Shown: positions 10,687-62,701, counted from the first letter of the stretch. The stretch: 64,000 nt of DNA from Raillietiella orientalis (GCA_036172245.1 JAYWIR010000005.1:2418001-2482000); one strand, 5' to 3'. Notes: a model not told the origin generated them from the letters alone. A program made the numbers and translations.

Positions 10687-10893
10687 TTATCACCCGGGTA
10701 CGCCTGGGGCGTTTATTAATAAACTCTACATGCGTGGTAAAAGGCTTCACCACGGCCGTAAACACAGGACCTGTCGGGACACCGGGACGCAGCCCGGCGT
10801 GGCACTCCCCGACAGCGAAAGGGGATAAGGGGAAAAAACAAAAAGAAAAAAAAGAAATAAAAAACAAAAAGTGTTTGGAGGGCAGGGTAGGGA

Positions 10894-19939: not shown

Positions 19940-20252
19940 TTATCACCCGGTCACGCCGGGGGGTTTATTGATAATAATTAACTGGTCAGGGACAATGTCC
20001 ACAACCAACAGTACGACAGGAAAGATAGAAAAATTTTTGGCACGCAGGCCTGGTAAACAAACCGCTCGCAGCGTGGGAGGAATGAGGGGAAAAAAACAGA
20101 AATCAAAAACTGGAGGGAAAGGTGACGGGTTTTTGGATAGGCTCCGTACTCACGGGGATTTATACGATGAGCACATGAAATGTTTCGGAGCCTATGGGGA
20201 CGCGGGTGTAAAAAGAAAATCCAAAATTAGTTTATGGAGGGTAGGGCAATCA

Positions 20253-26900: not shown

Positions 26901-27518
26901 GAGAAGAAGCAGAGAGAGTGGAAGACGGGCCAGCTAACTGATGCTGCGACCCCGAGTACGCCTCCTAATAAACTTCTGCGCTGGGGAACGCTGCTGGATG
27001 TTCCGATTGAACATCTGAAGTGGCCCCCGATTCTTATGAACACTTCCATCCTCCCCCTAAAATGGCAAGAGTCGGCATTCCTGTTGCAGCACTGGGGACT
27101 CCCCTGCAACGCCCGTCGACACCACAGGACCTGGGGAGCGGTGGATCCCAATTGTGTAAGGTGCGGGGAACGGGATTCCCTTCCCCACCTCCTAGTGGAT
27201 TGTGTTGTCCTTCGGCCCCTTTGCTTCCGCTTTGCCGCGGCCATCGGTATCCCTTGCAGCAACCCCAGATACGCACTAAAAGCCTTCTTCATTGTCGACG
27301 CCCTGCGGCCAGCGTCCTCGATAGCAGATTTGTGCTTCCTTCGTATGATCGTCGCCGCCTGGAGCACGGCGACGGGAGGACCTAGCGATCAGGACGCCAT
27401 CCAGTGCGCCTCCCAATTCCTGAGGAGGGCGTCGCAATGGCCCTAATTGGATGTTCATAACAAACAAGAGCTTGTCAGCATCCTGAGAGGGATGATGCGG
27501 CCAAGGCAGCATCAGTGA
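23939..27518 (+). pseudogene. C1 ORF2 APE-RT-CCHC, degenerate
   Basis: ORFs 23939..24619 (WNVNG, GDFN, IDH), 25374..26060 (QGDSLSP, YADD), 27036..27446. Confidence 0.9.
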
Positions 27519-27736
27519 TCCCTTCACGTTCCCTCCCACCCTTTGTTTGTTTTTGTTTAGTTTTTTTGTTTTTCCCCTTTCCCCTGCTGCCTTGGTGGAC
27601 CGTACCGGTCTAGAAACCGGTGAATTAGCAGACTCCCTGGTTCTTAGCTTCTGGCTGGAGCATTGCCACAGCCATTAATAATTTCTTTATAAAGTTTATT
27701 TTTTTAAAAAACGACCCTTAGAAATCCGGCTGAAAA

Positions 27737-29454
27737 TCGAACGCCTTGTAGAGATCGATTGCGACCGCCAACGCACCTGGCGTTCCCTCCTGCCGTCGAC
27801 GCCTGTTCTTTTTGCCTGCGGCAGTGACTTTCGCAGCAGTCTGGCTTTGCTGCGCCACAACTTCCTGCAGCTGCATCCATGTACGCGCGAAAAGGATGTT
27901 CGCCTCCATGGATCGTCCCGGAACCGCGTAGGTTAGTTCCGGGCTCACCACAGATTCCGCAATACTTCCTAACCGCGCGACCCACAGCTTGGAAAACAAC
28001 TTGACGTCCGAGTTTACCAAGGTGATCGGACACCAGTTGTTAAGTTGACGCAAGTCTCCGCCTTTCGGCAGGAGACGCACCTTCGCTGAGCGGAAGGAAT
28101 CCGGGACATTCCCGGATTCACTCATCAGCGTCGCGAGTCTCAGCATCAAGAAAATGAGCTCCACTACAAAGCACTGATAAAACTCTGCAGGGAGCTCATT
28201 CTCGTTTGGCGCCTTTCGTCACTTCAGCCAAGCGATGGCGGACGAAAATTCATCCGCCGTGAAGGGCTCGTTGAGACTTTCGCGTTCCTCCTCGCCGACA
28301 ACACGAGCATCCTGAAATAGGAGTATCTCAGAAAGAATATCCTCCGTCGGGGATTCCGCGTACAGCGAGGAGTAGTAGCGTCTCACAATGCGGCGTACTT
28401 CGGCTGGGGCCGAACATTCCTGGCCGTTGTCGTCCAACAGGCATGCTGCTCCGGACTGCCAGACCTGGCGCTCGGCCCTCGCCTTGTACTCTGCGAGACG
28501 CCCGACATCCGCGCGTCTCGAAAACGTGCGGGCCTGCAGAAAGTCTCTACTGTTGGCCACGCCCTCTCCGAAACCGCGTGGAAGCCGGTGCAAGGGGAAT
28601 TGGCAGCAGAACTCGCGGACAGATCTTTTGAGATCGTCCCAGTCCGCAAGTTCTTGAATGGCAAAGCCTCGGAGGTATCCACGTAGATGCTCCGCAGCCT
28701 CCGGTTGGCTAAGCCAATCCGCCTGCATCCTCCAGTTTTGCAACGGAGGCCCCCTGCCTGGCGGAAGGATCTCAAACTCCAACCTGTGGTGGTCAGAAAG
28801 CCTAGTCAACAATCTTCCTCTCCTACCCACACGCGAATGCAGGTTTTTATCGAGGAAAACGTGATCGAGCGATCATTTTATTCCTGGTTCGCTGACCATC
28901 ATGTTGGCAGCGTGCACGGACGCGCACATCTCGATGGGCAGCGCGCGCTCCCTCGGGCGGCTCCAATCGTAGGAGAGCAGGCGGACGTTGAAGTCCCCAG
29001 CGACGAGGTGCGCAACTTGGTAACCGGAGTTGTTGAGCCAGTGGCTCTGCACCTCACCAAAGAAAGCTACTCTTTCTTCGAGGTAGCGAGAACCACTCGG
29101 CGCGTAGACGTTCGTAACGACGAGATCGATGGACTCGGACCACTTGATGACAAGCTGGCCTATCCGTCCGTCGTCATCGAAACGAACACTACGCACCGCT
29201 TCCGCCATTTTTCCTCCTACGAGGAACGCGACGCCGCACGTGTGTGCGCCGCCGCACCGCCAATGTAGCGTTCCGCCTGCGCGCTCCTCGATTTCGGCTG
29301 CCTGCTCGTCGGAGATTACGTGAATCTCCTGCAGGGGCGCGAGGTCGAAGGGGCGCAGGGCGTTGGCTACTAACCGCCTCTTCTCGTCGTTCTGTAGTCC
29401 GTTCACGTTCCAACACGTTACGGACAGACGACGAGAAGACGCGATTCCCTGCAT
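27737..29454 (-). pseudogene. A2 ORF2 5' piece (APE, linker, RT to KAFD)
   Basis: ORFs 28873..29454 (MQGIASSRRLSVTCWNVNG), 28219..28830, 27718..28164. Confidence 0.9.
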
Positions 29455-31400
29455 TACTGCTGGGAAAGTGGCCGCTTTTTGCTCGCTTTATCCGGAGAGC
29501 AGACGGCGAACAGCACGACTGGCTGGAGGGGACGGTCGCCACCGTGTTCTGTCGTGCTGCATGCATGTAATGCCTCCACGCCAGGCTTAACTCCGTCGGG
29601 TTTCGTGGAGACTTCGCGTTGCTTCGCGGCGAGCGTTGCCTGGCTGCCTACTTTTGATCGGCGCGCACACGCTTTGGAACGAGTTGTCCCCGTCTCGGTG
29701 ATCGGAACGGCATCCATTTCGGAGTCCGACCGGCGCATGTTCGATCGGGTTTCGGCCTTCCGCGAAGTAGTGACAGGTTCTGCTGGATTAACAGCTGTCC
29801 TGTTGTCGTTTTCCGTCAACAGAGCATCGCTTTTGGTGACGGCTGCTTTCCCGGCACGCGGGTTTTCAGGGTGCTCACGCACAGCTGCACGAGGGACCTT
29901 TGCTGAAGTCTTCTTCACTTCATTACGGTTCCTCACTCCGCGTGGCGACGTAAATGGAGATTGTGCTCCATTGCCATCTTTGAAGCCATCCGCGTCTTTG
30001 GACGAGAGCACTTTCGATGGCTCCGGCACGCTCGTCATAGACGCTGCCTTCGGAAGGGCTTTTAATCTTTTCGTTGGCATGGCATCCGCGCCAGTCGAGA
30101 GCTTGCTCTCCGACAGCGACGGCGTGAGATTTTTCTCCGTTTTCGCGGTGTTGGATCGCGTAGCGGATTTTCTTTTGCCGACTTTCGAAGTCGACACGGC
30201 ACAACCCTTCTTACCCGACTTGGTCTTTTCACCCACTGCAGCAGGTGAAGAAATGGATCTGATGGTACTGGAAGTGTCCTTACCGCCGTTGTCCATTGGC
30301 GTCCCCGCCGGTTGCTCGAACTCCGAGAGAGCCGGGCGTGCTTGGAAAGGACAGCTATTGCGCCTAGGGGGACTTACCATTGTCCCGGATTCCCCGCACC
30401 CTTTCCTTTGCGGCTCCCCTGCCGCGAGAGGGGGCGCGCAGGGCATCGCGTGCGAGGTTTCCTGCTGCTTTAAAGCGACATTTCGCCTAGCGTTTCTACG
30501 GAATTTCTGCCGTAGGGTCTCCAGGTTTTTCGCAGATTTTTTCTTTTTATCCACGCTTTGTTTTTTGAGAAGGAGCTGCGAGGCTGCCTTTTTTCGCAAA
30601 AGATCCGGGCAATTTTTCAATTAGTGCACGGATATTTTGCAATAACGGCATTTTCTAGAGGGGCATTCATCCAAACAATGCCCCTCCTTCCCGCATTGCT
30701 CGCACGTTCTTACTTTGCCCACGAACCACAGGTGAACGACCGTGTCTTTCACATGTAGTTTCGTGGGCAGCAGACGGCGGTCCGGCATTGTAAGCCGGAC
30801 TTCAGCGACTCCGCTGTGTATGGACGGGAAGTTCTTGAGCTTGCTACGCACCCACCAGAGCGCATGGACCGTGGCGAATTTCGCCAACAAGTTCCGAATA
30901 TCAATATTTGAGATTTGCGACTCGATGTCGAAAATTTCCGCCACAAATGAGTCGTCCATAGCGGCCGCGAAGACCTTCTTGCCACGGATCGACAACGGGG
31001 TACGCAGCAAGCGTTGCACAAGTGCAGCGTCTTTGAAACGCACCTTGAAATAGTTCATATCTTTCACGGTCGTAATGACGAGGAGGTCCTCCTCTCGCAC
31101 GCCAACACGGGTCAGTTCATCTTTGAACTGATTCCCGTCGCGCGCAGAAAGAATTCCACTCACCTTATATCGGAGAGCAGGTCTATAGCCTTGGGCTACG
31201 TATGCCCGCAACTCTGACTCGTCGAGTGGTTTCCCTTTGACGGCTGCTGTGGCAGCAACGTCAGCAAAACTCCTCTCCATTGGCGAGAAAGACGAAGTGG
31301 AGGCGGCCGTCGGTTCCGCGATTGCAGATCCGGATGCTGTTCCTCCAACTTCAGTATCTTCATGTTGGGTCGATATCGTCGTCAAAATGTACGACGCCAA
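29454..31400 (-). pseudogene. A2 ORF1, gag-like (about 648 aa) with a single in-frame TAA in the second knuckle
   Basis: 30621..31400 and 29454..30620 are contiguous in frame; CEQCGKEGHCLDEC, CRYCKISVH*LKNC. Confidence 0.87.
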
Positions 31401-31454: not shown

Positions 31455-33679
31455 GATTGAAATCTACCGCTATCAGGTGAGCTTTTCGCACATTGGTATC
31501 CGCCAGCCAGTCGCGCTTCAGGGATTCCAGCAGCCTGGTGCGGTCGCGGTAACCCTGTTTGCCGCTGGGGCCATACACGTTTGTGACGATTAGGTCGATC
31601 GAGTCGGACCAGCTGAGAATCAGCTGACCGATCCGACCGTCGTCATCAAACCGCACGCCCTTTACGGCAGCGTCGATGACCGGCTTCACTTAGAAAGCGA
31701 CCCTGCAGGTGTTGCGGAGACCGCATCGCCAATACAACCGACCCCCCACGATCGTCTCGATCTCCTGGACATCTGCCGCGGTGATCACGGGGATCTCCTG
31801 CAGCAGGGCCAGGTCGAACTAACGCAGGGTGTCGGCGGTATCTCGCCTGTTACCGTCGTCGCGCAGCCCGTTGACGTTCCAACAGGCGGCGCGAATCCGA
31901 CGGCGACTGGCGTGCCCAGGTGTTACTCCTGGGAAGATGGCGATGCGGCGTCCGCCACCTGTTGCGGCGGGACGCTAGGTGGAGGAGGAGGGTCAGGCGC
32001 TGCGTGAACCTGGTCCCCCTCCTCCATGGGCAACGGCGCGTCGAGCGGGTCACCCTCAGGTGGGGTCGCGCCTACCTGTTGGCCCTCCTCCATGGGGGCA
32101 GGCTGTTCAGGCTCGGCGACTGCAGGGAGGACTTCGCCCCCCTGCTCACCCTCCTCCATGAAGGTGGCCGGCTCGACGGCTTCCGAGCGTGGGAGTTCCC
32201 CCTCCGGGATTCCCACGCAACCGCTACCTTCCTGCTTCTCCTCCTCGCTGGTGGAAGGGAGGCGCCTCCTGGGTTTCTGGGACTTGCGTCCCGACTTCCT
32301 GGGGGGTGCCTCCGAGGAGGAGGACGCACTTCCATCCCCCAGGTTCAACTCACTCGTGAGGGCTTTTTTCGCGAAAGCCGGTCTTCGCACGGCCTTGCGC
32401 GAGGGGTTCTCACGCTCGGCCAGCGTGGCCGGGAGCTCCGCCGCCGCCTGAGCGAACGCGGCGTCCTCGGCTCCGACCGTCTCTATTTCGCGCGGCTCAC
32501 CCTCTGTGTAAACAGAGGGTTCGCCGTCGTGAACCTCGGGCGCGGCGGAAATGGCGAGGGAAGGCTCGTCGCCCCGGGTGGCAATCTCGGGGACGGCTAT
32601 GCGCTCCAGTGCCACCGTGCATTCCCGCATGGTCTTGGAGCGCGGCCCAGGTTTTTTCGCCTTGCCGGCTGTCTTTTTTACAGCTTTCGCGGGTTCCGCA
32701 GGAGGCACCTTTTTCTTCTTTCTGGGCTTGACCAGCTGCCAGCCGTCTTGGACTCCCGCGTCTTCGGAAGGTTTTTCTTCCGACGCCTGTGTGGGAGGAA
32801 CTTGGGTTAGCGGCTGCTGCCGGCCAGTATCTCTTTTTGGACTTTCGACCAATTTTCCGCGTTTTGCCTGCGCTTTCTTTGCAGCAGGCGGCACCGGAGT
32901 GGGGCATTTAGGGCATACGCGGCGCACGTGGCCCTTCTCCCCGCATAAGTGGCACACAATGTTCGGGCACCGCTTGCTCAAGTGTCGTACTGCATTGCAG
33001 TAGCCACAAAAGCGGGGTTTCCCCACGTACCAGAGGTCTACGACTTCGCCATTGACCTCTAGTTTGTGGGGAAGCCCACTCTTCTTCACCGTCACGCGCG
33101 CGGCGGCCTGCCCTCCGGAAAGGGTATTGTAGCCATCAAAGATTGTGGCCTTTGGCCATTGCGCGTGAACATCGCCATATTTTCTTAACTGATCACCAAC
33201 CGCAGACCGCGTCATGCGGCTGGTGATCCCTGTCAGATGGACGACTACGGAGCGGTCCATCGTGACTGGTAGGATCTTGCGTCCGTACACGTTCAGCGGG
33301 GTGGTAATCAAGCTTTGCGCCAAGGTGATGTCCTTGCAGACAACCTCGACGCGCTGTCCCCCGCTGAGCACGGCTAGACCGTCAAGATCCTTTTCTAACA
33401 CGTTGGCGTTCTGCAGCGCCCTGGAAAAGCGCGTGCAGTTCGCCCGTCGAAGAGATTGCCTACCCGGTACACCAAGCTGTGCTTGTACCCAGCTGTCCGG
33501 TAGGCCTCCATCTGGGCCATGGTTTCCGCGCTCGGCGCGGCCACCATGGCGCGCTAGCTCCTCGCCTTGAGCGGTGAGGGCGATTCCGGGACGGACGCCC
33601 CTGATTCTGTAGGCTGTGGGGATGGGCAAGCCTCCCTTACACCTACCTCCATCGTGGTGTCCTCAGACATCGCTGCCAT
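31455..33679 (-). pseudogene. B1 ORF1 (33679-31923) and APE N-half (31923-31455)
   Basis: ORF 31923..33629 with CGYCNAVRHLSKRC, CHLCGEKGHVRRVC; near-identical to B2 ORF1; APE ends HLIAVDFN. Confidence 0.9.
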
Positions 33680-36101: not shown

Positions 36102-37501
36102 CAGATAAGACGCGCGGGAAAAGAAAAATTTTAAAACCGGCAAATTGGACTAGAAAATCTGCCAATAACCGAAGCTTCAAGCGCGCCTACGGAGAAAAAG
36201 CTTATCGAAACCGCAGAAAGAGAACTGGGCTGGCAGCTAGACAGAGCCAAAAAAGAGAAAAAAAACACGCATGTCCTGAAGAAAGGAGAGAAGGCGGAAA
36301 CCGGAACAAAAGCTAAGTCCGTGCCGCGCGTAAAAACACTCAAGGAATGCACGGATACGCTGGAACGCATTGACGTGCCCGCCGACACCACCGGAGGCGA
36401 TACGGCTTCAATCGATATTCCCACCGCGACTGTTGCGCGCGAAAAACCACCCCCTGCTTGCGAAGAGTGTCAGCCGGGCGACAAACTCGCCGAAACCGAG
36501 GATGCAGCCTTCGAGAAGACCGCGGAGGAGCTTGCGTTTACGCTTGCCGTACGCGAAAACCCTTCGCGGAAGGGGCTACGTAGGCCGGCAGCGGCTAAAA
36601 TAGCCCCCGCAGTTGAGTCGCACCGGGAGGCCGGAAGTGCATTCTTCTCTGCGGAAGCACCACCAAGGAAAGCGAGGCGAAAATCCGAGAAACCTAGAAC
36701 GTGCATTCCGCCTCCGCGCGAGGGGGATGCAATGGACGAGGAACCAGTGGATATCGACGTGGGAGCCCTAGTCGGGGATCACTCACGTGCGGAAGCCGAC
36801 GAGGAGGTGATTCCAATGGATAAGGGTAATCAGGCTACAGCAATGCCCCCTGAAACCGCCGATCCTGAAACACCCGCACCAATGGATGTGGGCCAACAGG
36901 TACGAGCAACACTTGCTTCGCACGAGCATTCGGAGACGTTGGCACGTAAGAAGGATGAAGAGTTGGTGGGCAAGACGCCAACCCCGTCCCACGACTTGCC
37001 CCCAAAAGTGACGGGAGAACCACCGCCAGGTTCCCAGGAATAACACCTGCACTCGCCTGTCTCCGTCGGATCCGCGTGGCCTGTTGGAATGTCAACGGGC
37101 TGCGCGACGACGGAAACAGACGGGACAGAGCCGCCACCTTGCGAGATTTCGACCTGATGCTTTTGCAGGAGATCCAAATGATCACGCAAAAGATGCCCAA
37201 GAGTTCGAAACGATCGCGGAAGCGGTTGTACTGGCGATGCGGCGCATGCGACACCTGTGGGGTCGCGTTCTTTCTAAAGCCAGCCATTCACGCGGCCGTG
37301 AAGGGCGTGAGCTTCGATGACGATGGACGGGTGAGTCAGCTGATTATCAGCTGGTCCGAATTGATCGAACTGATCGTCACGAATGTGTACGCCACCAGCA
37401 GAAAACAGGGATACAGCGCCCGCAACAGGTTGCTGGAATTGCTGAAGCTCGACTGGCTGGCGGACACGAACGTGCGGAAAGCTCACCTAATAGCGGGAGA
37501 C
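36102..37501 (+). mobile_element. Retrotransposon F2, 5'-truncated (ORF1 C-half, APE to HLIAGD)
   Basis: Homologous to 8920-10270; ORFs 36321..37043, 37076..37504. Confidence 0.85.
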
Positions 37502-44482: not shown

Positions 44483-47400
44483 TCACAAGTTCTGCACTAA
44501 TGGTGGATTTCCAGATGCTTGGTCGCGGGAGTCGCCTTCTATCCTCATCAGGATAAATCGGTACGTGCAGGCTTTGATTTTCCCACAGTTTCTAATGCCG
44601 ATTTCCCTCTTCAGGAGCCCTTGTAGGATCTCCATCGGTGGTGCGGCTCTTCTGGCTTTTCTCATTTTCCACAACCGCAAAAGTATGGCAGTGATGAAGA
44701 GGGCGATGGTCGTCCTCACCATGGGATTGTAACAGGGAACATTACCATCCCCCTGAAACATCCCGGCGAGAATCTCCATTACGGATCTGTTCGTAAGTCC
44801 GATGAACCTTTACAGGATCAGCCAGTCATGCAGCAATGTGGGAAACGTCAAGACATGAAGTCTCGTGTCGTTGTCTCCACATGCCGTGCAGTCTCGATCT
44901 TCCCGTCTTCCGGTATAGTACTGCAATCGGGACCCACTGTGGATTCCTCCATGATAAAACATCAGGAGGTCATCCTGGGTGCCCGGCGGAAGGTTACTTC
45001 TCCAGAGCGTCGTGCCGATCGCTAGAAGGTTGATTCGGTCACTTCCGTAGCGATCGGTTGCTCCCTGGAGGGCACTGATGTCACGGTCTTCTTCCCGAAT
45101 TAATCTTCGGAGGTTTGTTTTGAATACCCTGGACCACGCGAAGACGAGATGGTTGATCCACACCTCGCGAATAATGTAAGTAAACCTTCCTAACATCATC
45201 TCTATATACCTAAGTATACGGGTGTGATGTAGGTACCCTCCTCGTTTCCACACCTGGATTCGTTGTAGGGTAACTCAGGACCGCTGGTGGATCCAGCTTC
45301 TCGTGTCCCGCGGGACAGGAAGCATCCAAGAGATCACCAGGATGGACTCGTCCTGCAGAGTTCCCTACTTCTCAACACGATCTTGATTTTGTGCTTTCGC
45401 ACCAGCCGTTGCTTCCTCGTCCAGGTTGGGTCAATTGTTTTCCATTCGCATGCTCGGCCTAGTAGCGCAGTCTTCAGGCCTTTCGAGTTGTTCGACAACA
45501 ACGCGTAGGCCCTGTGCGCCGCATACGGCCAGTCATCCCAGTGAGTGGCAATGTCCAGGATGTGTCGCGTATCCATGATTTCTATGGAGTGTGCAAGCGA
45601 CTTCATCCCGGAACCGCCTTCTTCCCTGGGACGACACAGGGGTTTTAGTCGGCCTCTTGGGCGATAGTGGCCCCACAGTGTTTTTCTCTGCAGCTTGTCG
45701 AACTCCCTCGTTGTGTCCTTGTTCATCCTCGCGAAGGCCGCCCCGAAGAGCACTTTTGGAAGGAGTACTCCGTTTCATATGTTGGCCTTTCGCTTCATTC
45801 CAAGGTCCGTTCGGGTGTACTTGGCTGCTTCCTTGGCCGTTTTCCATAGGATCTCGCTCCACAATAGCTTCGACGCGGAGACGTCGCCAATGTAGACACC
45901 CAGGTACTTGGTCTTGTCCACCGTTCGGAATCCTTACCCCGCTAGAGTGGAGAGATCGAGGATTCCAACGGGCAAGAGCTGGCTTTTCTAGACGTTGATC
46001 TTTAGACCCAGGCCTTGATTCATTAGGTCTACCACATCCAGAAACGCCCGTTGATTTCTCTCTCCCTTGATAAAGAAGAGTAGATCATCAGCGTATGCCA
46101 GATGGGTAAGACGCTGGCCAACGATTGTTATGCCTTGCAGTCGTCCGCTCTTCTCGATAAAGGACGACAACGCCTCCATGTAGATGACGAACAGCATCGT
46201 ACTTAGCGAATCGCCCTGCCGGACTCCCCGTTCCATCCGGATTGCTGCCGTCTCCTGGCCGTTGATTTTGATTCGGCAGTACTGGTTCTGGAGTACCACC
46301 CTCACGAAGTTGTTGAAGTGTTCCGGAAGGCCTAGCTTCTCCAGAACCTTCAGCAGCATCCCATGGTCGATAGAGTCGAAAGCCGTCTCCATGTCAGTGA
46401 GCACCAGCGCCAGATTCTCGCCGACGTATCGGCTGAGTCCGACGGTGGCCTGGGCACACTTGACATTGTCCGACATGTGACGTCCAGGGACTGCACACGT
46501 TTGGACCGGAGAGATGAGCCTCGACATGACCTTGCCTACGCGGCTGGACCAGATCTTCGCCAACCACTTGGCATCGGAGTTCAGGATCAAGATTGGCCTC
46601 CATTGAGCGACCTGCGTGGGGTCGCCTCCTTTTGGCAACAATCTCATCCGACTCGCGTAGAAGGACTGTGGAAGTCTTCCTTCTTCGCGGATGCAGAGGG
46701 TCAACTGGTAGAACAAACGCAGGTAGGCATGCAGGAACCGCTGATAGTGAGCCATGGGTACGCTTTCAGGGCCCGCTGCCACGTCCTTGCGTAGTTCACT
46801 AAACGCAGTCATCACCTCATTTTCGGAGAACTCCTCCTCCTGTCTGTTCCGCTGGAGGTCGTCGGTCCTCTTCTCGAGATAGCTCAAGAAGGCCTGTTTA
46901 CTAGAGAGACAGAGATGTTGTCGCCTGAAGTGTTTCGTGTAATGGCTGTGAAAGGCATCCACGATGTCCTCAGACGACTGTCGCTTTTGACCGTCGTACT
47001 GGATGCAGAAGATATCTGTTGCCAGATTTCTCTTCCCCAGCACGTCGACTTCCCCTTTTATGTTCTTGAAGACGTACCGACTCTCGTACTGATCGAAGTA
47101 CTTTAGGAGTGAGTGATCTTGGATGTTTAGTTCCCGGTACGCCTCCTGCCTTGAGCGCCTATCCCCGAACTGCGTGTTCGCAAACATGTGTATCCTGTGT
47201 TTCAGGCTGTTTCAGTCGGCGACTCTTCGGATTGTTGTTGCCCTCAGAATCGCCTCCAGGACAGCCTGATGTCCGGGATGGGTTGCGAACCAGGAGAGCA
47301 TGCTGATGAGCGCCGCCCAGGTGCCTTGCCTCCGCCTAGGATTCTCCGTTCTTAGGGAAAACCGCACCAGGGAGTGATCGGACACCGTGGTCAGAATGTC

Positions 47401-48015
47401 CCGAAAACCCTGGATACGATTTCCTAGTTCGGTGCTGTGGAGGACGTGATCGATCGGCTTGTGACTTGCAATTCGCCACACCAGTCCGAACTCTCCGGAT
47501 AACCGCCGATACGCCGTCCTTCGTCTGGCGTCTTCGGAGTGGGTGATTTCATCCAATATGTTGAGATCGCCAGCAACAATCACGACGTCCTTGGAAGCAA
47601 CCTTTTCACGGAGTGCTGCATGCAGCGCCTCCGCACAACGATGTTTTAGCCTGTGCGGCCCGCACAGGTTCACCAGGATGAGGTGAACAGTAGCGGACCA
47701 GGCCAGTCGCACGCCGATGATTCGTCCGGGTTGGGGAGAGAACACTTCCAAAATAGTGAAGGCCAAGTTGATCTTGATTAGGACCGCCACACGCTGCGTG
47801 TTTCGTTTTCCCTCGCTGACGAACATCTGCCCGTTGAATCGCCGTTCCATTTGCTTACTAATCTCGAGACCCATCTTCTGGGTCTCCTGCAGGCACATTA
47901 TGTCTTGTTGTGCGATGGTCCGCACAATACTTTTTCTTTTTTCCTGGTTGACCACACCTTTTGCATTCCAGGAGTCGATGTTCAGCCTCCTGGCGGTCGA
48001 TAGAGAAGAGGACAT
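44483..48015 (-). pseudogene. G ORF2 APE-RT-CCHC, frameshifted
   Basis: SWNAKG, LQET, GDLN, IDH, SDH; QWRPI, DMETAFD, GVRQGDSLS, YADD; CTACGDNDTRLH. Confidence 0.88.
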
Positions 48016-48019
48016 AAAA

Positions 48020-49815
48020 GGGGAATTCCTATTTCTTGGCCTTGTTGTTCTTCTTCTGTCTGAGAGAGCGTGCTCTTCCAGACAACGAAGAAGCAGCGGG
48101 CTTCTTGCTGCCGGCGTCACTCTTTGTTCCGGTGAGGTCGGTTACTTCCGCCGCCTCCGTAGAGTGTTCCGCCCGCGCGATCAATTTTCGAGATAGCGCC
48201 TCTATCTCGACCTTGGCGCAGAAGTTCGCCTTTACGTCGAAAAGCTGTTCCTCTAGCTTCTCTCGCTCGGTGACCTCCACAACCTTGTTGACCTTTTCCT
48301 GTGCATTGCAGATCTTCTGCAAGATTTTCTCTTGCTGGGACAGCTCTGCACCTCTAGGACTTCATTAACCAGTGATGCCAACTCCTCCGTTGATTGCAGG
48401 GCCTCCTGCGACACTGGAGTGGCTTCCTGGTTTCCTACTTTCACGCCTTCCTGCGCTAGCTCCATGTTTTCGCCTTCCTGCACTGCTTCTTCTAGGATAA
48501 GAGGGATTTCTTGCTCCATGACGAGCATCCTCCTCTTTCCTTTCTTCCCTACCTGTATGAAGCCGTGTTTCGATACCGGCACGGCTTCTTTCACCTTCTT
48601 CGGCCTTCCTGCCTTCTGAGGCTGTTCCGCCTCCTTGGTGTTTCTTTCTCTCACGGGTGAGAGACCTCGAATCCTTCTGCAGTTTGCAAACTCCGGACAG
48701 CTCCATTTGGCATGTCCGTGTTTCTTGCAGCAGGAGCACACCTCCGGCTGCGGGCAGTTTCGGACTTGATGTCCTACTTTGCCGCAGCGGAAACAACGAC
48801 ACGTTGGCCAAGCGCCGGCCCTGTTGCCGAACTGCTTGCAGCCGGTGCAGAATATCGGTTGTTGCCGGTAACGCACGTTCACTCCCTGGGATTGTTCGTC
48901 AAGAACAACAAATCCAGGGATCACAGCTCCCTCTTTCAACTTCATTTTGGCGATCATGTCGCCAGAAAATATATTTTCAGAGAAGTTCTGGAATTCAAGG
49001 TCCAGAACTTCCCCATACTGCTCCAAAAAGTTCCGCACCGTTAGTTGCGGTGTGAGGATGGAGATGCCGTTCCGAAAGTTGGTTGTGTATGGCATGTTGC
49101 CAATACCACAAACCATCTTCCCTTGTATATTGATCCCCTTCTGGATCAATCGCTCTCTAATATTTTCACAGTCTGTGAAGACTGTCAACCCGTTATTTGC
49201 CGGTATGATCTCTTGTATTTGATCAAAATTGATATCCGTCTTATCGAAGGACAGATACACCTCCCTGATATTATTTAATTTGATCAGCCAAGTCTTGAAA
49301 ATGATGGGCTTCACATTTGGCCCTACATTCACGATTGACCGATCCACCTTTTGGACTTTGCCGCATAGCGGCTTCCCGAATTTTCTTGGTTGGTGGACAC
49401 TCGCTTGTCCAGCCGCCACCAACGAATAGGAAATGGGCTGCGCCGCCGCAGCCGAACAAGATGGCGTTTCACCCTGAACTGCGTGGACGCCCGCGGGTCC
49501 TGCCTGGGACGCTGCCGCCGCGAGCGCAACCCTTGACGTCGCCACCGTTGCCGCCGCGGGCGGCACCCTCGGCATCGCCGCCGCAGGCGCGACCTTCCCC
49601 GCCGCGGGCACGATCCTTGGTGTCGCCGCCGCGGGCACGACCTCCGCCGTCGTCGCCGCGGGCACGACCCTTGGCCTCGCCACCGCCGGCGCAGCAAAGC
49701 CCGCCGCGGGCGCGATTCTAGGCATGCCTGCCACCGCCTAGCTGTTGCCGCACGTTACCTCCATGGCTTCCATGGGGGACGACGGTCTCTCCACTCCTCC
49801 GCCAGGTTCCTGCAT
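48020..49815 (-). pseudogene. G ORF1, gag-like with three knuckles (first degenerate) and an Ala/Pro-rich repeat at about 49505-49715
   Basis: CTGCKQFGN, CFRCGKVGHQVRNC, CSCCKKHGHAKWSC; GCCGCCGCGGGC repeats; TAG at 49738-49740. Confidence 0.82.
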
Positions 49816-51710
49816 CCTGGAAGCTGGTCTTGCTGCACGGGACCACAACAGGTCTTCCGCCGCGATCTCCTCTGCGCTTCTTTTGTTGTTTCGTCTGGAA
49901 ACTTCCCCTCTCCGGGCACACACGAGCACAATTAACAGATTAATCTGTCGAGCGCACAATACTTTGAGCCGCGAAGCAAGTTCATTGACTCGGCAGGAAA
50001 GCAGCAATCTCCCGACTGTCAAGAGTGTGACACCGTTGCCGCATTTTAAAGGCGTAGCGAAAGCAACGCCCCCAGAGAACGCAGCGAAAATCCCGGAGCT
50101 TTCCGCAACTACTGTCGCGGAATGCTTTGAAAATCGCGATAGCGAATGGAAGGTTGTGGAAAGGAGGAGAGAAAAATCTCCAAAAAAAGCTCCGCAACAT
50201 CCATCCCTGAGCTCTTCCAAAGGAAAAAGCAGTCGCGCGAATACGAAAACACGCCCGGCTTGTGCCTCTTCCCAGGAAATAGCCAGCGGCTTCAACGCGT
50301 GCAAGTACGCTTCTGTGACCTCCGAGAAGACCATTCCCGTGCAATCGGGCGGATGCAAGCGCACGTCGATCGTGCGAGCATCAGACTTCGCAAAGGAGTC
50401 CGATAACGCAGCTGAACGACGCGTTACTCGCGCGGGAGCGAGCGCCCGCAGGGCTGAAGCCCTGAGGCGTGACACACTTGCCGAGGAACGGCGAGTGTTC
50501 ACCCCGGAACCAACAGGTTCCGCACCCGGGGAGGAGCACTCGATTACGCGCAGCACGGTGGAGGCCGTTGGCGACCGCGCCCTCCAGCCCGTCGTGCTGC
50601 TTACTGCGCGCTCGCCGGGTGAGGCGAGCACCACGGCCTCGCTTTCCTAGCCGTGATGAGGGCAATCGCGTCTTCTCGTGGTGTTGCCGTGACGTCTTGG
50701 AACGTCAGCGGGCTCCAACACGAGGAGAAGAGGCTACTAGTGGCTCACGCTCTGCGCGCCTTTGACTTGACGCTCCTGCAGGATATTCACAGCTTCTCCG
50801 AAGAGCAGGCTGCCGAAATCGAATGGCGCGCGGGCGGAACGCTACTTTATAGGTGCCGCGCTGCACGTACGTGCGGCGTCGCTTTCCTCGTGCGAGGAGC
50901 TTTTGCGTGAGCGGTGCGCAGCGTTCGTTTCAACACGGAAGGCCGAGTGGTACAGGTTGTACTCAAGTGGTCCGACTCGATCGACCTTGTCGTAACCAAC
51001 GTGTACGCGCCGAGCGGTGCTGGACGATGGGCCGAAAGGATTGAGTTTTTCGGTACCGTTCAAAGCCAGTGGCTCACTCAATCTCACCCTTCTGTGGCCC
51101 ATCTCATTGCGGGGGCTTTAACGTCCACCTGCTTCCCAAGAATAGGTCCCACAAAAAGGAAAAGTTGCTAGCGGAAGAGATGTGCGCGTCCGTGCACGCG
51201 TGGAACTTGTTTGCTAGCGACCCTGTTTTGGCAACAACGCCGGACCACGTATACCTTGATGAACACTTGCTCTCTCGAGTGGGTCGGAGAGGTGCCGTGC
51301 CGTCCGTGCTTTCAGACCACAACAGGCTCGAGTTCGAGTTGCTCCCGCCAGGCAAGGGGCCTCCAAACTGTTTTTGGAGGATGCCGTCAGACTGGATAAG
51401 CCACCCGGAGGCGGCTGAGCATCTTCGCCAGTACCTGCTCATCTTTGCGATGAGTGAGCTCGAGGACTAGACGATCTGAAAAGATCGGTCCACGAGTTCT
51501 GCTGCCGCTTTCCCTTGCACCAGCTTCCGCGCGGCTTTGGAGAAGGCGTAGCCAACAGCAGAGATTTTCTGCAGGCCCGCTTTTTTTCCAGACGCGCGGT
51601 CGTTGGTCGATTATCCGAGTACAAGGGCAAGGCCGAGCGTCAGGTCTGGCAGTCAGGGGCGACAGTCCTGCTCGACGACCAGGACCGGGAATGCACGGCT
51701 CCATTCGACG

Positions 51711-54794: not shown

Positions 54795-56552
54795 ATGGCA
54801 GCGATGCCTGAGGACACCACGATGGAGGTAGGTGTAGGGGAGGCTTGCCCATCCCCACAGCCTACAGAATCTGGGGCGTCCGCCCCGGAATCGCCCTCGC
54901 CGCTCAAGGCAAGGAGCTGGAGCGCCATGGTGGCCGCGCCGAGCGCGGAAACCATGGCCGAGATGGCGGCCTACCGGGCAGCTGGATACAAGCCCAGCTT
55001 GGTTTACCAGGTAGGCAATCTCTTTGACGGGCGAACTGCACGCGCTTTTTCGAAAGCGCTGCAGAACGCCAACGTGTTGGAAAAGGACCTTGACGGTCTA
55101 TCCGTGCTCAGCGGGGGTCAGCGCGTCGAGGTTGTCTGCAAGGACATCACCTTGGCGCAAAGCTTGATAACCACCCCGCTGAACGTGGACGGACGCAAGA
55201 TCCTACCAGTCACGATGGACCGCTCCGTAGTGGTACATCTGACAGGGATCACCAGCCGCATGACGCGGTCTGCGGTTGGTGATCAATTAAGAAAGTATGG
55301 AGATGTTCACGCGCTATGGCCAAAGGCCACAATCTTCGATGGCTACGATAGCCTTTTCGGAGGGCAAGCCGCCGCGCGCGTGACGGTGAAGGAGAGTGGG
55401 CTTCCCCACAAACTAGAGGTCAATGGCGAAGTCGTAGACCTCTGGTACGTGGGGAAACCCCGCTTGTGTGGCTACTGCAATGCAGTAGGACACTTGCGCA
55501 AGCGGTGCCCGAACATTGTGTGCCACTTATGCGGGGAGAAGGGCCACGTACGCCGCGTATGCCCTAAACGCCCCACTCCGGTGCCGCCTGCTGCAAAGAA
55601 AGCACAGGCAAAACGCGGTAAACTGGTCGAAAGACCAAAAAGAGATACTTGCCGGCAGCAGCCGCTAGCCCCTGTTCCTCCCACACAGGCGTCGGAAGAA
55701 AAACCCTCCGAAGACGCGGGAGTCCAAGACGGCTGGCAGCTGGTCAAGGCCAGGTAGGAGAAAAACGTGCACCCCGCGGAACCCGCGAAAGCGGTACAAA
55801 AGACAGCCGGCAAGGCGAAAAATCCTGGGCCGCGCTCTAAGACCATGCGGGAGTGTACGGTAGCACTGGAGCGCATAGCCGTTCCCGAGATTGCCGCCCG
55901 GGGCGAAGAGCCTTGCCTCGCCGTTTCCGCCGCGCCCGAGGTTCGCGACGGCGAACCCTCTGTTTACACAGAGGGTGAGCCGCGCGAAATAGCGACGGTC
56001 GAAGCCGAGGACGCCGCGTTCGCAAAGGCGGCGGAGGAGCGCGCGGCCACGGTGGCGGAGCGTGAGAACCCCTCGCGCAAGGCCGTGCTAAGGCCGGCTC
56101 CCGCGAAAAAGTCCCCCACAGGTGAGTCGGACCTGGAGGCCGGAAGTGCATCCCCCTCCTCGGAGGCACCCCCCAGGAAGTCGGGACGCAAGTCCCAGAA
56201 ACCCAGGAGGCGCCTCCCCACCACCAGCGAAGAGGAGAAGCAGGAAGGTAGCGGTAGCGTGGGAATCCCGGAGGGGGAACTCCCACGCTCGGAAGCCGTC
56301 GAGCCGGCCACCCCCATGAAGGAGGGTGAGCAGGGGGGCGAAGTCCTCCCTGCAGTCGCCGAGCCTGAACAGCCCGCCCTCATGGAGGAGGGCCAACAGG
56401 TAGGCGCGACCCCACCTAAGGGTGACCCGCTCGACGCGCCGTTACCCATGAAGGAGGGGGACCAGGTGCACGCAGCGCCTGACCCTCCTCCTCCACCTAG
56501 CGTCCCGCCCCAACAGGTGGCGGACGCCGCATCGCCATCTTCCCAGGAATAA
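54795..56552 (+). pseudogene. B2 ORF1, gag-like; one in-frame TAG at 55755-55757
   Basis: ORFs 54765..55757 and 55767..56552 in the same frame; two CCHC knuckles. Confidence 0.9.
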
Positions 56553-59500
56553 CACCTGGGCTCGCCAGTCGCCGTCGGATTCGCGCCGCCTGTTGGAACG
56601 TCAACGGGCTGCGCGACGACGGTAACAGGCGAGATACCGCCGACACCCTGCGTGAGTTCGACCTGGCCCTGCTGCAGGAGATCCCCGTGATCACCGCGGA
56701 AGATGCCCAGGAGATCGAGACAATCGCGGGGGGTCGGCTGTATTGGCGGTGCGGCCTCCGCAACACCTGCGGGGTCGCGTTCTTCTTGAAGCCGGCCATC
56801 GACGCGGCCGTGAAGGGCTTGCGCTTCGATGACGACGGTCGGGACGGTCAGCTGATTCTCAGCTGGTCCGACTCGATCGAATTGATCGTCACGAATGTGT
56901 ACGCCCCCAGCGGTAAACAGGAATACAGCGACCGTACCAGGCTGCTGGATTCCCTGAAGCGCGACTGCCTGGCGGACACGAACGTGCGGAAGGCTCACCT
57001 GATAGCGGGAGATTTCAATCTCCGTCTGCTAACAGGTGAGCCAGAAACACAAGAGAACGCGATGAACGAGTTGTGCGCCGCCATGCGTACGTGCAACTTG
57101 TTCGCGGGTGAGAGGGGAATGGTCCGCAGCATCGACCACGTCTTCCTCGACGCTGACCTGTGTTCACGGGTCGGCAAACGGGGGAGGGTTGGGTCGACGT
57201 TGTCGGACCATTCCCGGTTAATTTTCGAGATGCGGCCTCGTGACAAGGGACCGCCATCCAGGGCTTGGCGTCTGCCGGGGGACTGGACGCGACTCTCAGG
57301 TGCGAGGGAATACCTTCGCGAACACCTGAGAGGTGTCACGCTCCGGAATCTCCAGGACTGGAACCTTTTTAAGGAATCGGTCCGCGAGTTCTGTGAGCAG
57401 TTCCCCCTGGATCGCCTGCCCACCGGATTCGGCGAGAGTGCTCGCAACCATCGGGCCTATTTACAGGCTCGTAGATAAGAGAGAACCCCTAATGTTCGTC
57501 GCCTGGCCGAGTACCGCGCCGGGGCCGAACGCCAAGCCTGGCAATCCGGGTCGGCCAGCTTGCTGGACGACCAGGGCCGGGAATGTTCGTCCCCGGCGTC
57601 GGTACGGCATCTAGTGCGGAGTTTCTATTCCTCCCTTTACGCCAGGGAGCCCCCGGATCGAAACGCCTCTCGGCGCTTGCTTCCGGATGGCGCCCCGGCA
57701 ATAGGGGAGGAGGAGATGGAAAGCTTCGACGAGCCTTTTACCACCGGCGAAATTCTCGCCGGTATCAAAAGGCTCAAGAAGCGTAAAGCTCCAGGAGAAG
57801 GCGGCTTGCACGCGGAGGTCTTTCAGAGCTTCGCGGAAGAGCTGGCACCCCTGCTGCTTAAGTTGATCAGGCTGATCCGAGACGAAGGCGATGTTCTCGC
57901 CTCGTTTCGCTCAGCCAGAGTGAGGCTCCTGCCGAAAGGGGGAGACCTCAGGGATTTAAAGAACTGGCGTCCGATCACGATCGTGAATACGGACGCCAAG
58001 TTGATCGCAGGGCTATGGGCTTCGCGTCTGGGGCAGGTGGCAGAATCCGTAATTATCCCGGAGCAGACTTATGCTGTTCCCGGGCGAAGTATGGATGCCA
58101 ACCTCTTCTTCGCACGCACATGGGTGCACCTGCAGAGAAGAGAGAAGAAAGGGATAGGGAAAGTCGGCAACCCCACATTGGGGCCGCCAGCCGGGCTGGG
58201 AAGGGAACCCCGGGCAGGGAAGGGGGCCCTAGCGCTCGCAGTCGATCTCCACAAAACGTTCGACTGTGTAGACCAGGAACTTCTCTTGGAGCTCCTGGGT
58301 CGCATGGGCTTTCCACCCTCCCTGATTTCCTACCTGCGCTCTTGCTGGCGGATTGCGATAATTACCGTCTCTTTCAGCGGTCAAAAGGTGTATGGCGTGC
58401 CGGTGCGGCGGGGCATAAGGCAGGGAGATAGCCTCAGCCCCCTGCTCTTCAGCACCTACTTTCAGTTGGTGCTGAGAGCGTACAGGGTGACTTTGGCCCC
58501 ATTGCCGAGCTCGTGCCCCGGCACGCCCGCCGTAGCAGCGTACGTCGACGATCTTCTGCTTTTGTTGCCAATGTCCACCCCGGCAAAGGCGGTCGGAGAC
58601 TTCTTCGATCTGCTCAGCCGCGGGACCGGACTGCAGGTTAACAGGGCGGAGTCGTCGGTTGTGCCAATAGGTGCGGCGTGGGCAGGGCAGCAGGACTGGG
58701 TCCGCCTGGGGATCCCCACGGCGAGGTGCTTCAAGTACCTTGGTGTGCCGTTGGGGGACTACTCCCCTGCGGAAGCGTGGTCCAGCTGCCTCCAAAAAGT
58801 CGAGACGGCGATCGGCCCGTTCCTGGAAGGCAAGTTTCACTTGCCGGAACGGGCCGCGGCTTGGAACGCCTTCGCGGCCCCCATCCTCCGCCCCTTGCTT
58901 TTTGTTTGCCCCCCCACCGTGGAATCCAAGAAGAGGACGAAGGACCTCCTCCGTATCGCCCTTTGGAGCAAGGGGAGGCCCCGAGTCCCACTGAAGGACT
59001 TGTGCGCTCCGCGTCGGGACGGCGGTCTTGGCCTCCTGACGCTGGAGCGCGTGGAGAAGCAGCTGCGGTGGCAACCCTCGCGATCGCAGCGAAGATGTGG
59101 AGCACCCCTTGGTGCACTCCGGCCCGCCTCCTGGCCAGCCGTGTGTCCCGGTGCGATGGACTCGCGTCTTTTCTTCTGAGCCGTGGCCGGAAGATGCGAA
59201 GATGCGGCCTACTTCTCGGGCGCATGGCAACATTGGCCAAGGAGAACAGCTGGATGGTTTGCTGCCCCGCCAACTCCCCCGCCTGGCTGGAGGAGAATAT
59301 TGGAACGTGGGCAGTAGTTAAGCAGAGAAGCCACGAGACGTGGAATCGTCTCCGATGCAGCCCCTACGCCCGCTGCACGCTGCGGAATCTCCTGGAGAGT
59401 CCAGCAAGATGCACGTGGGCAGAGACGACCTGCCTAGCTACGGCGCTGCCCTTCCTAAGGAGGGCACTTCACAGCACCCGGACGCCTAGGTGGCAAGTCT

Positions 59501-60147: not shown

Positions 60148-60352
60148 TCCCTTCCCTGCCCTCCAACTTCTTTTTGTTTGTTTCTTTTTATTTTACTTTT
60201 TGTCTTATCCTTATCCCCCTTCGCTGTCGGGGAGTGCCACGCCGGGCTGCGTCCCGGTGTCCCGACAGGTCGTGGGTTTACGGCCGTGGTGGGGCCTTGT
60301 ACCACGCAGGTAGAGTTTATTAATAAACGCCCCTGGCGTACCCGGGTGATAA
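60145..60352 (+). other. Structured 3' UTR: TGATCCCT at the stop, U-rich tract, CUGCGU-loop hairpin, AATAAA, terminal CCCGG/CCGGG hairpin
   Basis: Similar architecture at ten 3' ends (3213, 6569, 10687, 18943, 19940, 27736, 39344, 51711, 60352, 62702); degenerate in some copies and extended in subfamily A. Confidence 0.75.
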
Positions 60353-60369
60353 CGCCAACTCCCTTGGCG

Positions 60370-62701
60370 AGTGGACGTGTTTTTCCTTCGCTCTCGAGTG
60401 AGTCGACAGGAAGCGGTTTTTTCTTGTGTTGCTTGGTGTGGAACATCGTTGGTGTCCGATGGCAGCGTTGCCTGAGGACACCAAGATGGAGGGAGGTGTG
60501 GGGGAGGCTTGCCCACCCCCACAGCCTACAGAATCAGGGGCGTCCGCTCCGGAATCGCCCTCGCCGCCCAAGGCGAGGAGCTGGAGCGCCATGGTGGCCG
60601 CGCCGAGCGCGAAAACCGTGGCAGAGATGGCGTCTACCGGGCAGCTGGGTACAAGCCCAGCTTGGTATACCAGGTAGGCCCCTTGTTTGATGGAAAAACG
60701 GCACGCGTGTTTTCGAAAGCGCTGCAAAACGCCGGAGTAAGAGAACAAGATCTTGACGGTTTGTCCGTTCTCAGCGGAGCTCAGCGAGTCGAGGTGGTGT
60801 GCAATGAGATCACCTTGGCTCAGGCTCTGATCACCAACCCGCTGAACGTCGACGGCCGCAAGATCTTGCCAGTGACGATGGACCGCTCCGTGGTAGTCCA
60901 TCTCACTGGAATAACGAGCTGTATGAGTCGCTCTGCGGTCGCACAAGAACTGCAGAAGTTCGGCGAGGTGCACGCGCTGTGGCCTAAGCCAACAATCTTT
61001 GAAGGCTTCAATAGCCATTTCGAAGGCCAGGCTGCAGCGCGGGTAACCGTGAGTAAGGATTGTGGGCTTCCCCACAAGCTGGAGGTCGCGCAAGAGAGCG
61101 TGGACCTCTGGTACGTGGGAAAGCCCCGGTATTGCGGCTACTGCGATACCGTAGGACACCTTCGCAAGAGGTGTCCTAACATCCAATGCCACATGTGCGG
61201 GGAGAAGGGCCACGTTCGACATGTGTGCCCAAAACGCCCCACCCCGGTTCCTCCTGCCGCGAAAAAGGCGCAGGGGAAACGCGCACTAAAGGTCAGAAGA
61301 CCTAACGCGGACGCTGGCCGGCTGAAGCTGCCAGATCCTCAACCTCCAAAAGAAAAAACGGAGGATAAACCTTCCCAAGAGGCAGTAGGTGAAGAGGGCT
61401 GGCAACTTGTAGCAGCCAGAAAAGAGAGAAAAGCTCTTTTAAAGGAGAAGAAAGAGAAGCCGGCCGGTAAGGCAAAAAATCCCGGGCCGCGTTCGAAAAC
61501 CGTACGCGACTAAACGGTGGCACTGGAACGTATCGTCGTTCCGGAAGATGCCACCGGGGCGACGAGCCTCCCCTCGCCGTTTCCGTCGCGCCCGAAGTTC
61601 GCGACGGCGAACCCTCTGTGCAAACAGAGGGTGAGCCGCGCGACGCGCCGGTCGACACCGAGGACGCCGCGTTCGCAAAGGCGGCGGAGGAGCGCGCGGC
61701 CACGCTGGCGGAGCGTGAGAACCCCTCACGCAAGGCCGTGCGAAGGCCGGCTCCCGCGAAAAAGGCCCCCACAGGTTAGTCGGACCTAGGGGCCGCAAGT
61801 CCATCCTCCTCCTCGGAGGCATCCCCCAGGAAATCGGGACGCAAGTCCCAGAAACCCAGGAGGCGGTTCCCCTCCACCAGCGAGGAGGAGAAGCAGGAAG
61901 CTAGCGGTAACTTGGGAATCCCGGAAGGGGAACTCCCACGCTCGGAAGCCGTCGAGCCGTCCACCCCCATGGAGGAGGGTGAGCAGGGGGGCGAAGTCCT
62001 CCCTGCAGTCGCCGAGCCTGAACAGCCCGCCCCCATGGAGGAGGGCCAACAGGTAGGCGCGACCTCACCTGAGGGTGACCCGCTTGACGCGCCGTTACCC
62101 ATGGAGGAGGGGGACCAGGTGCCCGCAGCGCCTGACCCTCCTCCTCCACCTGGCGTCCCGCCCCAACAGGTGGCGGACGCCGCATCGCCATCTTCCCAGG
62201 AGTAACACCTGGGCTCGCCAGTCGCCGTCGGATTCGCGCCGCCTGTTGGAACGTCAACGGGCTGCGCGACGACGGTAACAGGCGAGATACGGCCGACACC
62301 CTGCGTGAGCTCGACCTGGCCCTGCTGCAGGAGATCCACGTGATCACCGCGGCAGACGCCCAGGAGATCGAGACGATCGCGGAGGGTCGGTTGTATTGGC
62401 GGTGCGGCCTCCGCAACACCTGCGGGGTCGCGTTCTTCGTGAAGCCGGCCATCGACGCTGCCGTAAAGGGCGTGCGGTTTGATGACGACGGTCGGATCGG
62501 TCAGCTGATTCTCAGCTGGTCCGTCAGACCATTCTCAGCGTCAACGTTGTCGGACCATTCCCGGTTAATTTTCGAGATGCGGTCTCCCGACAAGGGACCG
62601 CCATGCAGGGACTAGCGTCTGCCGGGGGACTGGACGCGACTCTCAGTTGCGAAGGAACACCTTCGCGAATACCTGAGAGGCGTCACGCTCCGGAATCTCC
62701 A
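60370..62701 (+). mobile_element. Retrotransposon B3 5' segment, head-to-tail with B2 (ORF1 60459-62205; APE with internal deletion); cut by I
   Basis: 5' UTR same as B2/B1; ORFs 60509..61513, 61912..62205, 62340..62615. Confidence 0.9.

Follow-up and report, generated by a model that had tools for sequence, protein, structure and literature searches.

In the genome of Raillietiella orientalis, a clade of retrotransposons without long terminal repeats (non-LTR) carries ACA in place of the AUG of its second open reading frame (ORF) and, judged by its substitution patterns, has kept that ORF under purifying selection. The clade, made up of subfamilies B, D, and F, lies in a stretch of 64,000 nt (GCA_036172245.1 JAYWIR010000005.1:2418001-2482000; hereafter the window), which is a nest of approximately two dozen fragments of one retrotransposon family, encoding an apurinic/apyrimidinic endonuclease (APE), a reverse transcriptase (RT), and an ORF1 with CCHC motifs, together with one distant family, G. 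Six copies are of the ACA type (B/D/F) and five, belonging to subfamilies A and E, are of the ATG type. On balance, we lean toward a reading in which ORF2 of the ACA type is translated by termination-coupled reinitiation at or next to ACA, in the manner of the SART1 element, with the AUG no longer needed.

In the full-length F copy, positions 56541-56562 read TTCCCAGGAATAACACCTGGGC. Here TAA (56550-56552) closes ORF1, and ACA (56552-56554), a codon of the ORF2 frame that starts on the last A of TAA and is followed by PGLASRRRIRAACWNVNGL, occupies the position assigned to the ORF2 ATG of the sister subfamilies by an ungapped 141-column alignment of the copies (junction at 56550-56554, +). From this codon the ORF2 frame opens as TPGLASRRRIRAACWNVNGL..., and the ATG-type proteins of the A and E copies start MQGIASSRRL, MPRMSSLRRL, and similar. 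The same junction was located in five further copies by searching the whole window, on both strands, for a 19-nt pattern, CCCRGGARTAACACCTGGG, with ≤3 mismatches: two copies of F (62195-62213, +, and 31915-31933, -, both AGTAACA), one of D (15144-15162, +, with a CCCGGG arm and a G-U pair), and two of B (9795-9813, +, 3' arm CCTGGA, one mismatch; 37033-37051, +, 3' arm CCTGCA, two mismatches). The T of the stop falls at 9803, 15152, 31925 (-), 37041, 56550, and 62203, and the copies are designated below by subfamily and number. The search returned eight matches, compared with 0.04 expected, a count reached in 0 of 100 shuffles. Since two near-palindromic sites also match on the opposite strand, the eight matches correspond to six loci, and because these six share descent the shuffle test demonstrates a real repeated feature only, not six independent origins.

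The UAAUG/UGAUG overlap, absent from all six B/D/F copies, where UAACA is found, is present in all five A/E copies, as TAATG in A_6936 (6936-6940, +), A_23937 (23937-23941, +), and E_29454 (29452-29456, -, first letter at 29456) and as TGATG in E_37649 (37649-37653, +) and E_50654 (50654-50658, +). Outgroup G (45595-50646, -) has an ORF2 that is 26% identical to that of F; at its junction, as read from the sequence (48013-48033, -), a TAG stop is followed by a 13-nt spacer and the ORF2 ATG. Reading the ORF2 frame of the six ACA copies from its closest preceding stop (37 to 82 nt ahead of the junction) as far as WNV, we found no ATG in any of them. An earlier note on this DNA had described the stop-start coupling of the sister copies, TAACA at the aligned position in all six B/D/F copies, and the lack of an AUG between TAACA and WNV; the motif search and the alignment bear out the first two, and the third holds in the ORF2 frame. 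In one DNA run (X1), where 42 contigs matched at 80% likeness, the variants listed near the F junction were 56533 C>T, 56549 A>G (yielding AGTAACA), and 56567 A>T. Among these, none fell at 56550-56554, a weak hint only, given that the cover consists of few short contigs; runs X2 and X3 contained no contigs matching at 80% likeness.

A tree of the leading 378 columns of the ORF2 alignment, from which the start codon had been dropped, united the six ACA copies in one group (support 80/91), and outgroup G and all A/E copies carry ATG. Hence, ATG is ancestral and a single change explains ACA. Within the ACA clade, over 294 to 869 ORF2 codons, the ratio of nonsynonymous to synonymous divergence (dN/dS; NG86) was 0.30 for F-D (869 codons, bootstrap 0.25-0.37, Fisher p 3e-33), 0.26 for F-B, 0.25 for D-B, and 0.25 for F_56550-F_31925, comparable to the 0.24 obtained between F and an ATG-bearing A copy. 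Since the paths joining F, D, and B all run through ACA-bearing ancestors, this selection postdates the change. ORF1, which has its own AUG, is also under selection (dN/dS 0.28-0.45). From +5 to +40, pN/pS was 0.33 in the ORF2 frame versus 1.5 in the continued ORF1 frame, which would place the start of translation no later than the codons just behind ACA. Met codons further along vary between copies, and a protein begun at the earliest of them would be without the endonuclease motifs WNV and LQE. Nucleotide identity between subfamilies peaks at the junction, reaching 0.89 at -7..+22 versus 0.1-0.7 in the ORF1 tail. F_56550 and F_31925 inserted independently, as they are 92.8% identical inside the element and only 69.7% in the 5' flank, and the homology of B_9803 with B_37041 and of F_56550 with F_62203 stops at the element ends. 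In agreement with the earlier note, which had argued from conservation against decay, these patterns of divergence indicate that the loss of the AUG is not decay and that ORF2 stayed under purifying selection.

On the 3' side of the stop, at a distance of 8 nt, folding and covariation delineate a long hairpin of approximately 73 nt (56561-56633, +), the WNVN codons forming its apex. Absent from the earlier note, it is, as modeled, the main conserved structure at the junction, being predicted in all 11 copies, with the long helix starting exactly at +11 (8 nt after the stop) in eight of them. At -60.6 kcal/mol, the fold of -12..+88 in F_56550 (56538-56638) has a z of -8.35 and was equaled by none of 200 dinucleotide shuffles, and z ranged from -8.35 to -2.3 in 10 of the 11 copies, with A_23937 at -1.4. 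When synonymous codons were resampled with the protein kept, z was -2.35 to -4.58 in seven of 11 copies (F_56550, -4.17). The outer stem shows compensatory changes in five of 16 pairs across the 11 copies; 80% of its cells are paired, versus 30-66% with the partner slid, and its 18 double-change cells, versus 6.3 in shuffles, were reached by none of 500 shuffles. The junction of outgroup G, with its spacer and own ATG, has no such fold (z 0.08, n=1). A search of Rfam gave nine matches with E values no higher than 1, each scoring well under its gathering threshold, and the miRNA-like matches at 56561-56633 merely reflect the hairpin. By analogy with the downstream structure of SART1, the conserved RNA element made up of this hairpin and a small one stacked against it probably serves ORF1-ORF2 coupling.

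Adjoining the long hairpin on its 5' side, a small hairpin pairs CCCAGG with CCUGGG around the loop AAUAACA, which holds the stop and ACA (56542-56560, +; minimum free energy (MFE) -9.7 kcal/mol for a 29-nt piece). It belongs to the MFE fold of -12..+88 in F_56550. The 6-bp stem is perfect in three of the six ACA copies, pairing is preserved through G-U in the D arm (CCCGGG), and one or two outer pairs are lost in the B copies (CCTGGA, CCTGCA). No compensatory change was found among the 39 predicted pairs of the six ACA copies (consensus fold). Two AUG-bearing E copies also place the stop in a hairpin loop, in another register (UUCCC.GCA/UGC.GGGAA), and a hairpin of this kind is therefore no peculiarity of the ACA type. 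Of the stem that the earlier note had proposed, the prediction itself and the G-U pairing in D stand; both B copies are eroded, compensatory change is lacking, and the feature is shared with ATG-type copies. The small stop-in-loop hairpin is thus plausible as a modeled structure, real but weakly supported and not ACA specific.

Hairpins upstream of the stop (-45..-9) are predicted in most copies but were set aside, since folds of -45..+20, compared with mononucleotide shuffles, reached a z of no more than -0.02 to -2.3. Separately, the last 36 to 45 nt of ORF1 (56505-56549 and the homologues in the other five ACA copies) show a synonymous divergence of 0.17-0.24 versus 0.4-0.66 nearby, and pN/pS there is at least 1 in both frames, that is, without protein-level selection. 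Within this tail, GGUGGCGG can pair with CCGCC on either side. The ORF1 tail may be an upstream RNA element or switch, representing a further constraint at the RNA level.

In the mechanism that we favor, the ancestor of B/D/F would have had a UAAUG-type stop-start overlap whose AUG became ACA. A ribosome finishing ORF1 would terminate at UAA, be incompletely recycled, and resume in the ORF2 frame on ACA or beside it, a cognate start codon not being required; coupling would be helped by the small stop-in-loop hairpin stacked on the long hairpin of approximately 73 nt, 8 nt downstream of the stop, and the ORF2 protein would still be made. Stop, frame, spacing, and structure are all retained in the ACA clade and only the start codon changed, so coupled reinitiation that tolerated the loss of AUG is the most economical explanation. 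Reviews describe UAAUG translational coupling of ORF1 and ORF2 in SART1, a telomere-specific non-LTR retrotransposon of Bombyx mori (Kojima et al. 2005), with review passages adding that this coupling needs downstream RNA structure, and likewise describe unconventional, AUG-independent translation of ORF2 in human LINE-1 (L1; LINE, long interspersed nuclear element) (Alisch et al. 2006); the precedents invoked by the earlier note agree with these descriptions. Like SART1, the present elements are bicistronic, APE-type, and site-specific in insertion, their ORF2 start position overlaps the ORF1 stop by one base (+2/-1 frame), the sister subfamilies A/E carry the same type of pentamer (TAATG/TGATG), and the RNA structure, here predicted (z -8.35 to -1.4, 11 of 11 copies), lies downstream rather than upstream of the junction. 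Unlike SART1, six copies have ACA for AUG and the structure is a prediction with covariation; the two are compared here as non-LTR elements. Human L1 would resemble the ACA clade in that ORF2 follows ORF1 without need of an AUG, which is suggested here by dN/dS and by selection from codon 2 onward. It differs in having, according to the reviews, a natural AUG and a 63-nt spacer, with independence shown by mutation, whereas here a whole clade is without AUG and the ORFs overlap.

A comparison can also be drawn with the termination upstream ribosome-binding sites (TURBS) of caliciviruses and influenza B virus, in which, as reviews and papers describe them, a stop-start overlap (UAAUG, UGAUG, AUGA) adjoins an RNA element and the identity of the start codon matters little. 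The main structure here is downstream of the stop, where TURBS, by the same accounts, need nothing. Their defining motif is given as UGGGA, a complement of 18S rRNA helix 26, which a stem displays at 12-24 nt from the stop/start. UGGGA (TGGGA) is absent from -85..-1 in all 11 copies, a single occurrence being found at -86 in D, and a TURBS element was accordingly rejected.

Several observations weigh against coupled reinitiation at ACA. That ORF2 is translated, where it starts, and that it depends on termination we infer from sequence comparison, as we do the action of the hairpins in translation, the restart after termination, and the starting residue. ACA differs from AUG at two positions, and in the systems tested so far such changes are described as strongly cutting reinitiation, the UAACG and UAAGC variants of the hypovirus CHV1 retaining 8% and 7% of activity, respectively. 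None of the six ACA copies is intact, leaving no demonstrably active ACA element in the window, and the contig census at the junction (few short contigs, X1 only) is thin and gives a weak hint. With regard to the long hairpin, synonymous resampling was weak in A_6936 (-1.59), D (-1.46), A_23937 (-0.94), and B_9803 (-0.34), the covariation comes from approximately three lineages (A, E, and B/D/F) and lies inside a coding region, and the inner-stem register differs between subfamilies. The role of the hairpin could lie in packaging or in reverse transcription instead of in translation, and a strong hairpin 8 nt after the A-site codon, together with UAA followed by C, fits a recoding stimulator equally well. 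On the other side, calicivirus reinitiation is described in a review as surviving changes at two or three positions of the start codon, review passages treat L1 ORF2 translation as AUG independent, and in vitro, according to the review literature, a non-cognate codon can serve when eIF2D is present or when an 80S ribosome that has terminated takes up elongator tRNA. For a LINE, making very little ORF2 protein may be tolerable or even favorable. A bolder version, in which start codon-independent reinitiation has become fixed on the non-cognate ACA, possibly with elongator Thr-tRNA and without methionine, and is driven by a new class of downstream reinitiation-stimulating RNA that does not depend on TURBS-18S pairing, is conceivable though doubtful.

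The nearest competitor is a -1 ribosomal frameshift at the end of ORF1, which we consider unlikely: with GAA/GAG in the P site, a slow UAA-C in the A site, and tension from the hairpin, GAA would slip to GGA, reading would continue AUA/GUA-ACA-CCU..., and a Gag-Pol-like ORF1-ORF2 fusion would result. ORF2 does lie in the -1 frame, which has no stop over the 37-82 nt that precede the end of ORF1 in all six copies; UAA is followed by C; and the very stable long hairpin comes 8 nt behind it, as in programmed -1 frameshifting of the Gag-Pol type, where a stable structure likewise follows the A-site codon. Eight nucleotides lies within the usual spacing of recoding stimulators, 5-9 nt downstream of the shift site, and here it would suit frameshift stimulation only if the stop is in the A site at the time of the shift. 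The last sense codon is GAA/GAG in the ACA clade only (CAG/AAG/CCG in AUG copies), and GAA could re-pair on GGA with one G-U. However, GGAA is a poor slip site, GAG, found in two of three F copies and in the best-covered contig, re-pairs worse, and no X_XXY_YYZ heptamer occurs in the last 120 nt of ORF1 in five of the six ACA copies, the CCCAAAA at -40 in B_37041 being private. The few changes in the last codons (GAA/GAG, TCC/TCT, CAG/CAA) are synonymous in the ORF1 frame, and the variation between GAA and GAG leans toward reinitiation over slippage on the stop codon. AUG-bearing copies, whose last codons cannot slip, have this hairpin too, equally far from the stop, so frameshifting is not what it arose for. 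Bypassing ("hopping") by a ribosome that leaves the last codon was rejected, as no GAA/GAG landing codon follows, as was reassignment of the stop codon, ORF2 being in a different frame and the in-frame stops of F_56550 being private mutations.

Initiator tRNA might instead start at a near-cognate codon, either AUU/AUC/UUG at +29 (ORF2 codon 10, in all six copies) or AUA at -1 (four of six), an idea we hold to be improbable. Reinitiating ribosomes are described in a review as using nearby codons when the start site is mutated, and the +29 codon, near-cognate in six of six copies and five codons before WNV, would keep the endonuclease motifs; it lies, however, inside the 5' arm of the long hairpin, and AUA at -1 is GUA in two of three F copies. 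Moreover, ORF2-frame differences at +5..+28 are mostly synonymous (GGG/GGA, CGG/CGA/AGG) versus one Ser/Cys, which suggests that these codons are translated. That B/D/F ORF2 is untranslated, the clade being non-autonomous and mobilized in trans by the ORF2 protein of AUG-bearing relatives with the junction as inherited debris, strikes us as very improbable. The window has no intact ACA copy and does hold AUG-bearing relatives in the same nest, and the sole close relative in a library of 1.84 billion representatives starts MRGIASSRR, the ATG type. Yet a dN/dS of 0.25-0.30 over 294-869 codons, the same as between the AUG and ACA clades, selection from the first ORF2 codons on, and a junction that is the best-conserved stretch (0.89 at -7..+22) all speak against debris. 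Equally remote in our estimation is an AUG that the RNA acquires, whether through splicing or editing or as part of a transcript fused to the host element. These elements do insert site-specifically into the ORFs of other elements, but ORF2-frame stops stand 37-82 nt upstream, ORF1 starts with an AUG of its own and shows selection (dN/dS 0.28-0.45), and no GT...AG pair spanning the stop is conserved in all three subfamilies, on which ground a small intron over the stop was also rejected.

Coupling as a means of bicistronic translation in LINEs and the AUG independence of ORF2 are already known. What is new, as far as our searches reach, is that an entire clade has fixed a non-cognate codon at the site homologous to UAAUG, alongside AUG-bearing sisters in the same genome that share a covarying downstream hairpin. 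Phrase searches of the literature for natural ORF2s without ATG found none within a coverage that leaves out most older LINE papers. Several insect elements have been described with overlapping, AUG-poor ORF2 starts, which were read as frameshifts. Given these elements and the thin coverage of the older LINE literature, we do not claim a first case. The way in which a bicistronic RNA yields the second LINE protein remains a matter of debate, and earlier evidence that the AUG is dispensable came from mutated human L1 and mutated viral reporters; here, AUG and ACA sisters occur naturally in one genome. As both kinds kept ORF2 under selection and have the same flanking structure, they form a matched natural pair that could address what holds a post-termination ribosome on the mRNA and what a restart requires. 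For annotation, the ORF2 of such elements will be missed or shortened if an ATG is required.

The best reading of B/D/F, from their sequences, is a once-active clade of L1/Tx1-like non-LTR retrotransposons. The full-length F_56550 (54689-60348, +), delimited by self-BLAST and by reading its ends, begins CCCTTGGCGAG and ends ...GGGTGATAA without poly(A). Its ORF1 (54795-56552, +; 1.8 kb) translates as MAAMPEDTT...SSQE, with the C terminus ...ASPSSQE before the stop, and contains zinc knuckles (zf-CCHC, E 7.2e-6; two CX2CX4HX4C motifs in the translation) and one in-frame TAG (55755-55757), which is private, F_31925 having AAG at the homologous codon. ORF2 (56552-59179, +) encodes an N-terminal APE endonuclease (Exo_endo_phos, E 3e-12) followed by the RT (RVT_1, E 1.2e-19) and carries one in-frame TAA (57476-57478), also private (TAC in three other copies). 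ORF2 of D_15152 is nearly full-length (15154-17777), with one frameshift; queried against solved structures, it was closest to human L1 ORF2p (E 9.3e-34). The remaining ACA copies are truncated by nested insertions. A 5'-truncated E, E_37649, sits inside B_37041. The element of F_62203 starts at 60353, head-to-tail behind F_56550 with a gap of 4 nt from its 3' end. Site-specific insertion and the missing poly(A) recall Tx1-group elements.

Relatives elsewhere were too few or too distant to yield further ACA junctions. A protein search with the RT part (5.8 billion proteins) gave 21 matches, the single close one (P0001, 71%) being an RT fragment only, and the endonuclease part gave one match at 25%. 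An exhaustive search of the 1.84 billion representatives gave 44 matches, namely P0023 at 51%, whose N terminus MRGIASSRR is of the ATG type, and the rest at 26-40%. A metagenome locus scan returned 10 loci at 23-28% identity, none of this LINE family.

F_56550 (54689) and F_31925 (33785, -) both start (CCCTTGGCGAG) at one antisense position, at approximately residue 290, in the ORF2 of different host elements, their host flanks being 69.7% alike versus 92.8% for the elements, and a third F start lies at 60349-60353. Another recurrent insertion site, GGAGA/TTTCAAT/CTCC, lies within the family's own ORF2, encodes GDFN, and has palindromic arms; insertions were found at 31455 (-), 37502, 3213, and 19940 (-), and an uninterrupted site at 57008-57023. 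The family thus seems to be its own site-specific target. At this site, the full-length E in F_31925 begins after ...GATTTCAAT and the 5'-truncated E in B_37041 after ...GGGAGAC, and two 3' ends read GGGTGATAA/ATTTCAAT, which count once because both lie within one inverted segmental duplication. All four observed 3' ends are without poly(A) (3205-3213; 10687-10695, -; 19940-19948, -; 60344-60352), and their consensus, ...AATAAAC(G/C)CCCC(N)GGCGT(A/G)(A/C)CCGGGTGATAA, contains a small GC-rich inverted repeat.

Two inverted segmental duplications were recognized, 1041-4204 versus 22112-18949 (92.9%, 3.2 kb) and 24080-29590 versus 43004-37515 (85.3%, 5.5 kb). As they span several nested pieces, some repeated junctions in the window are not independent insertions. 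B_9803 (start 8919) and B_37041 (start 36156) begin at one point in ORF1, approximately residue 306-310 of the F protein, with unrelated flanks, and this shared start reflects either B masters without the N-terminal part of ORF1 or a preferred point of 5' truncation.

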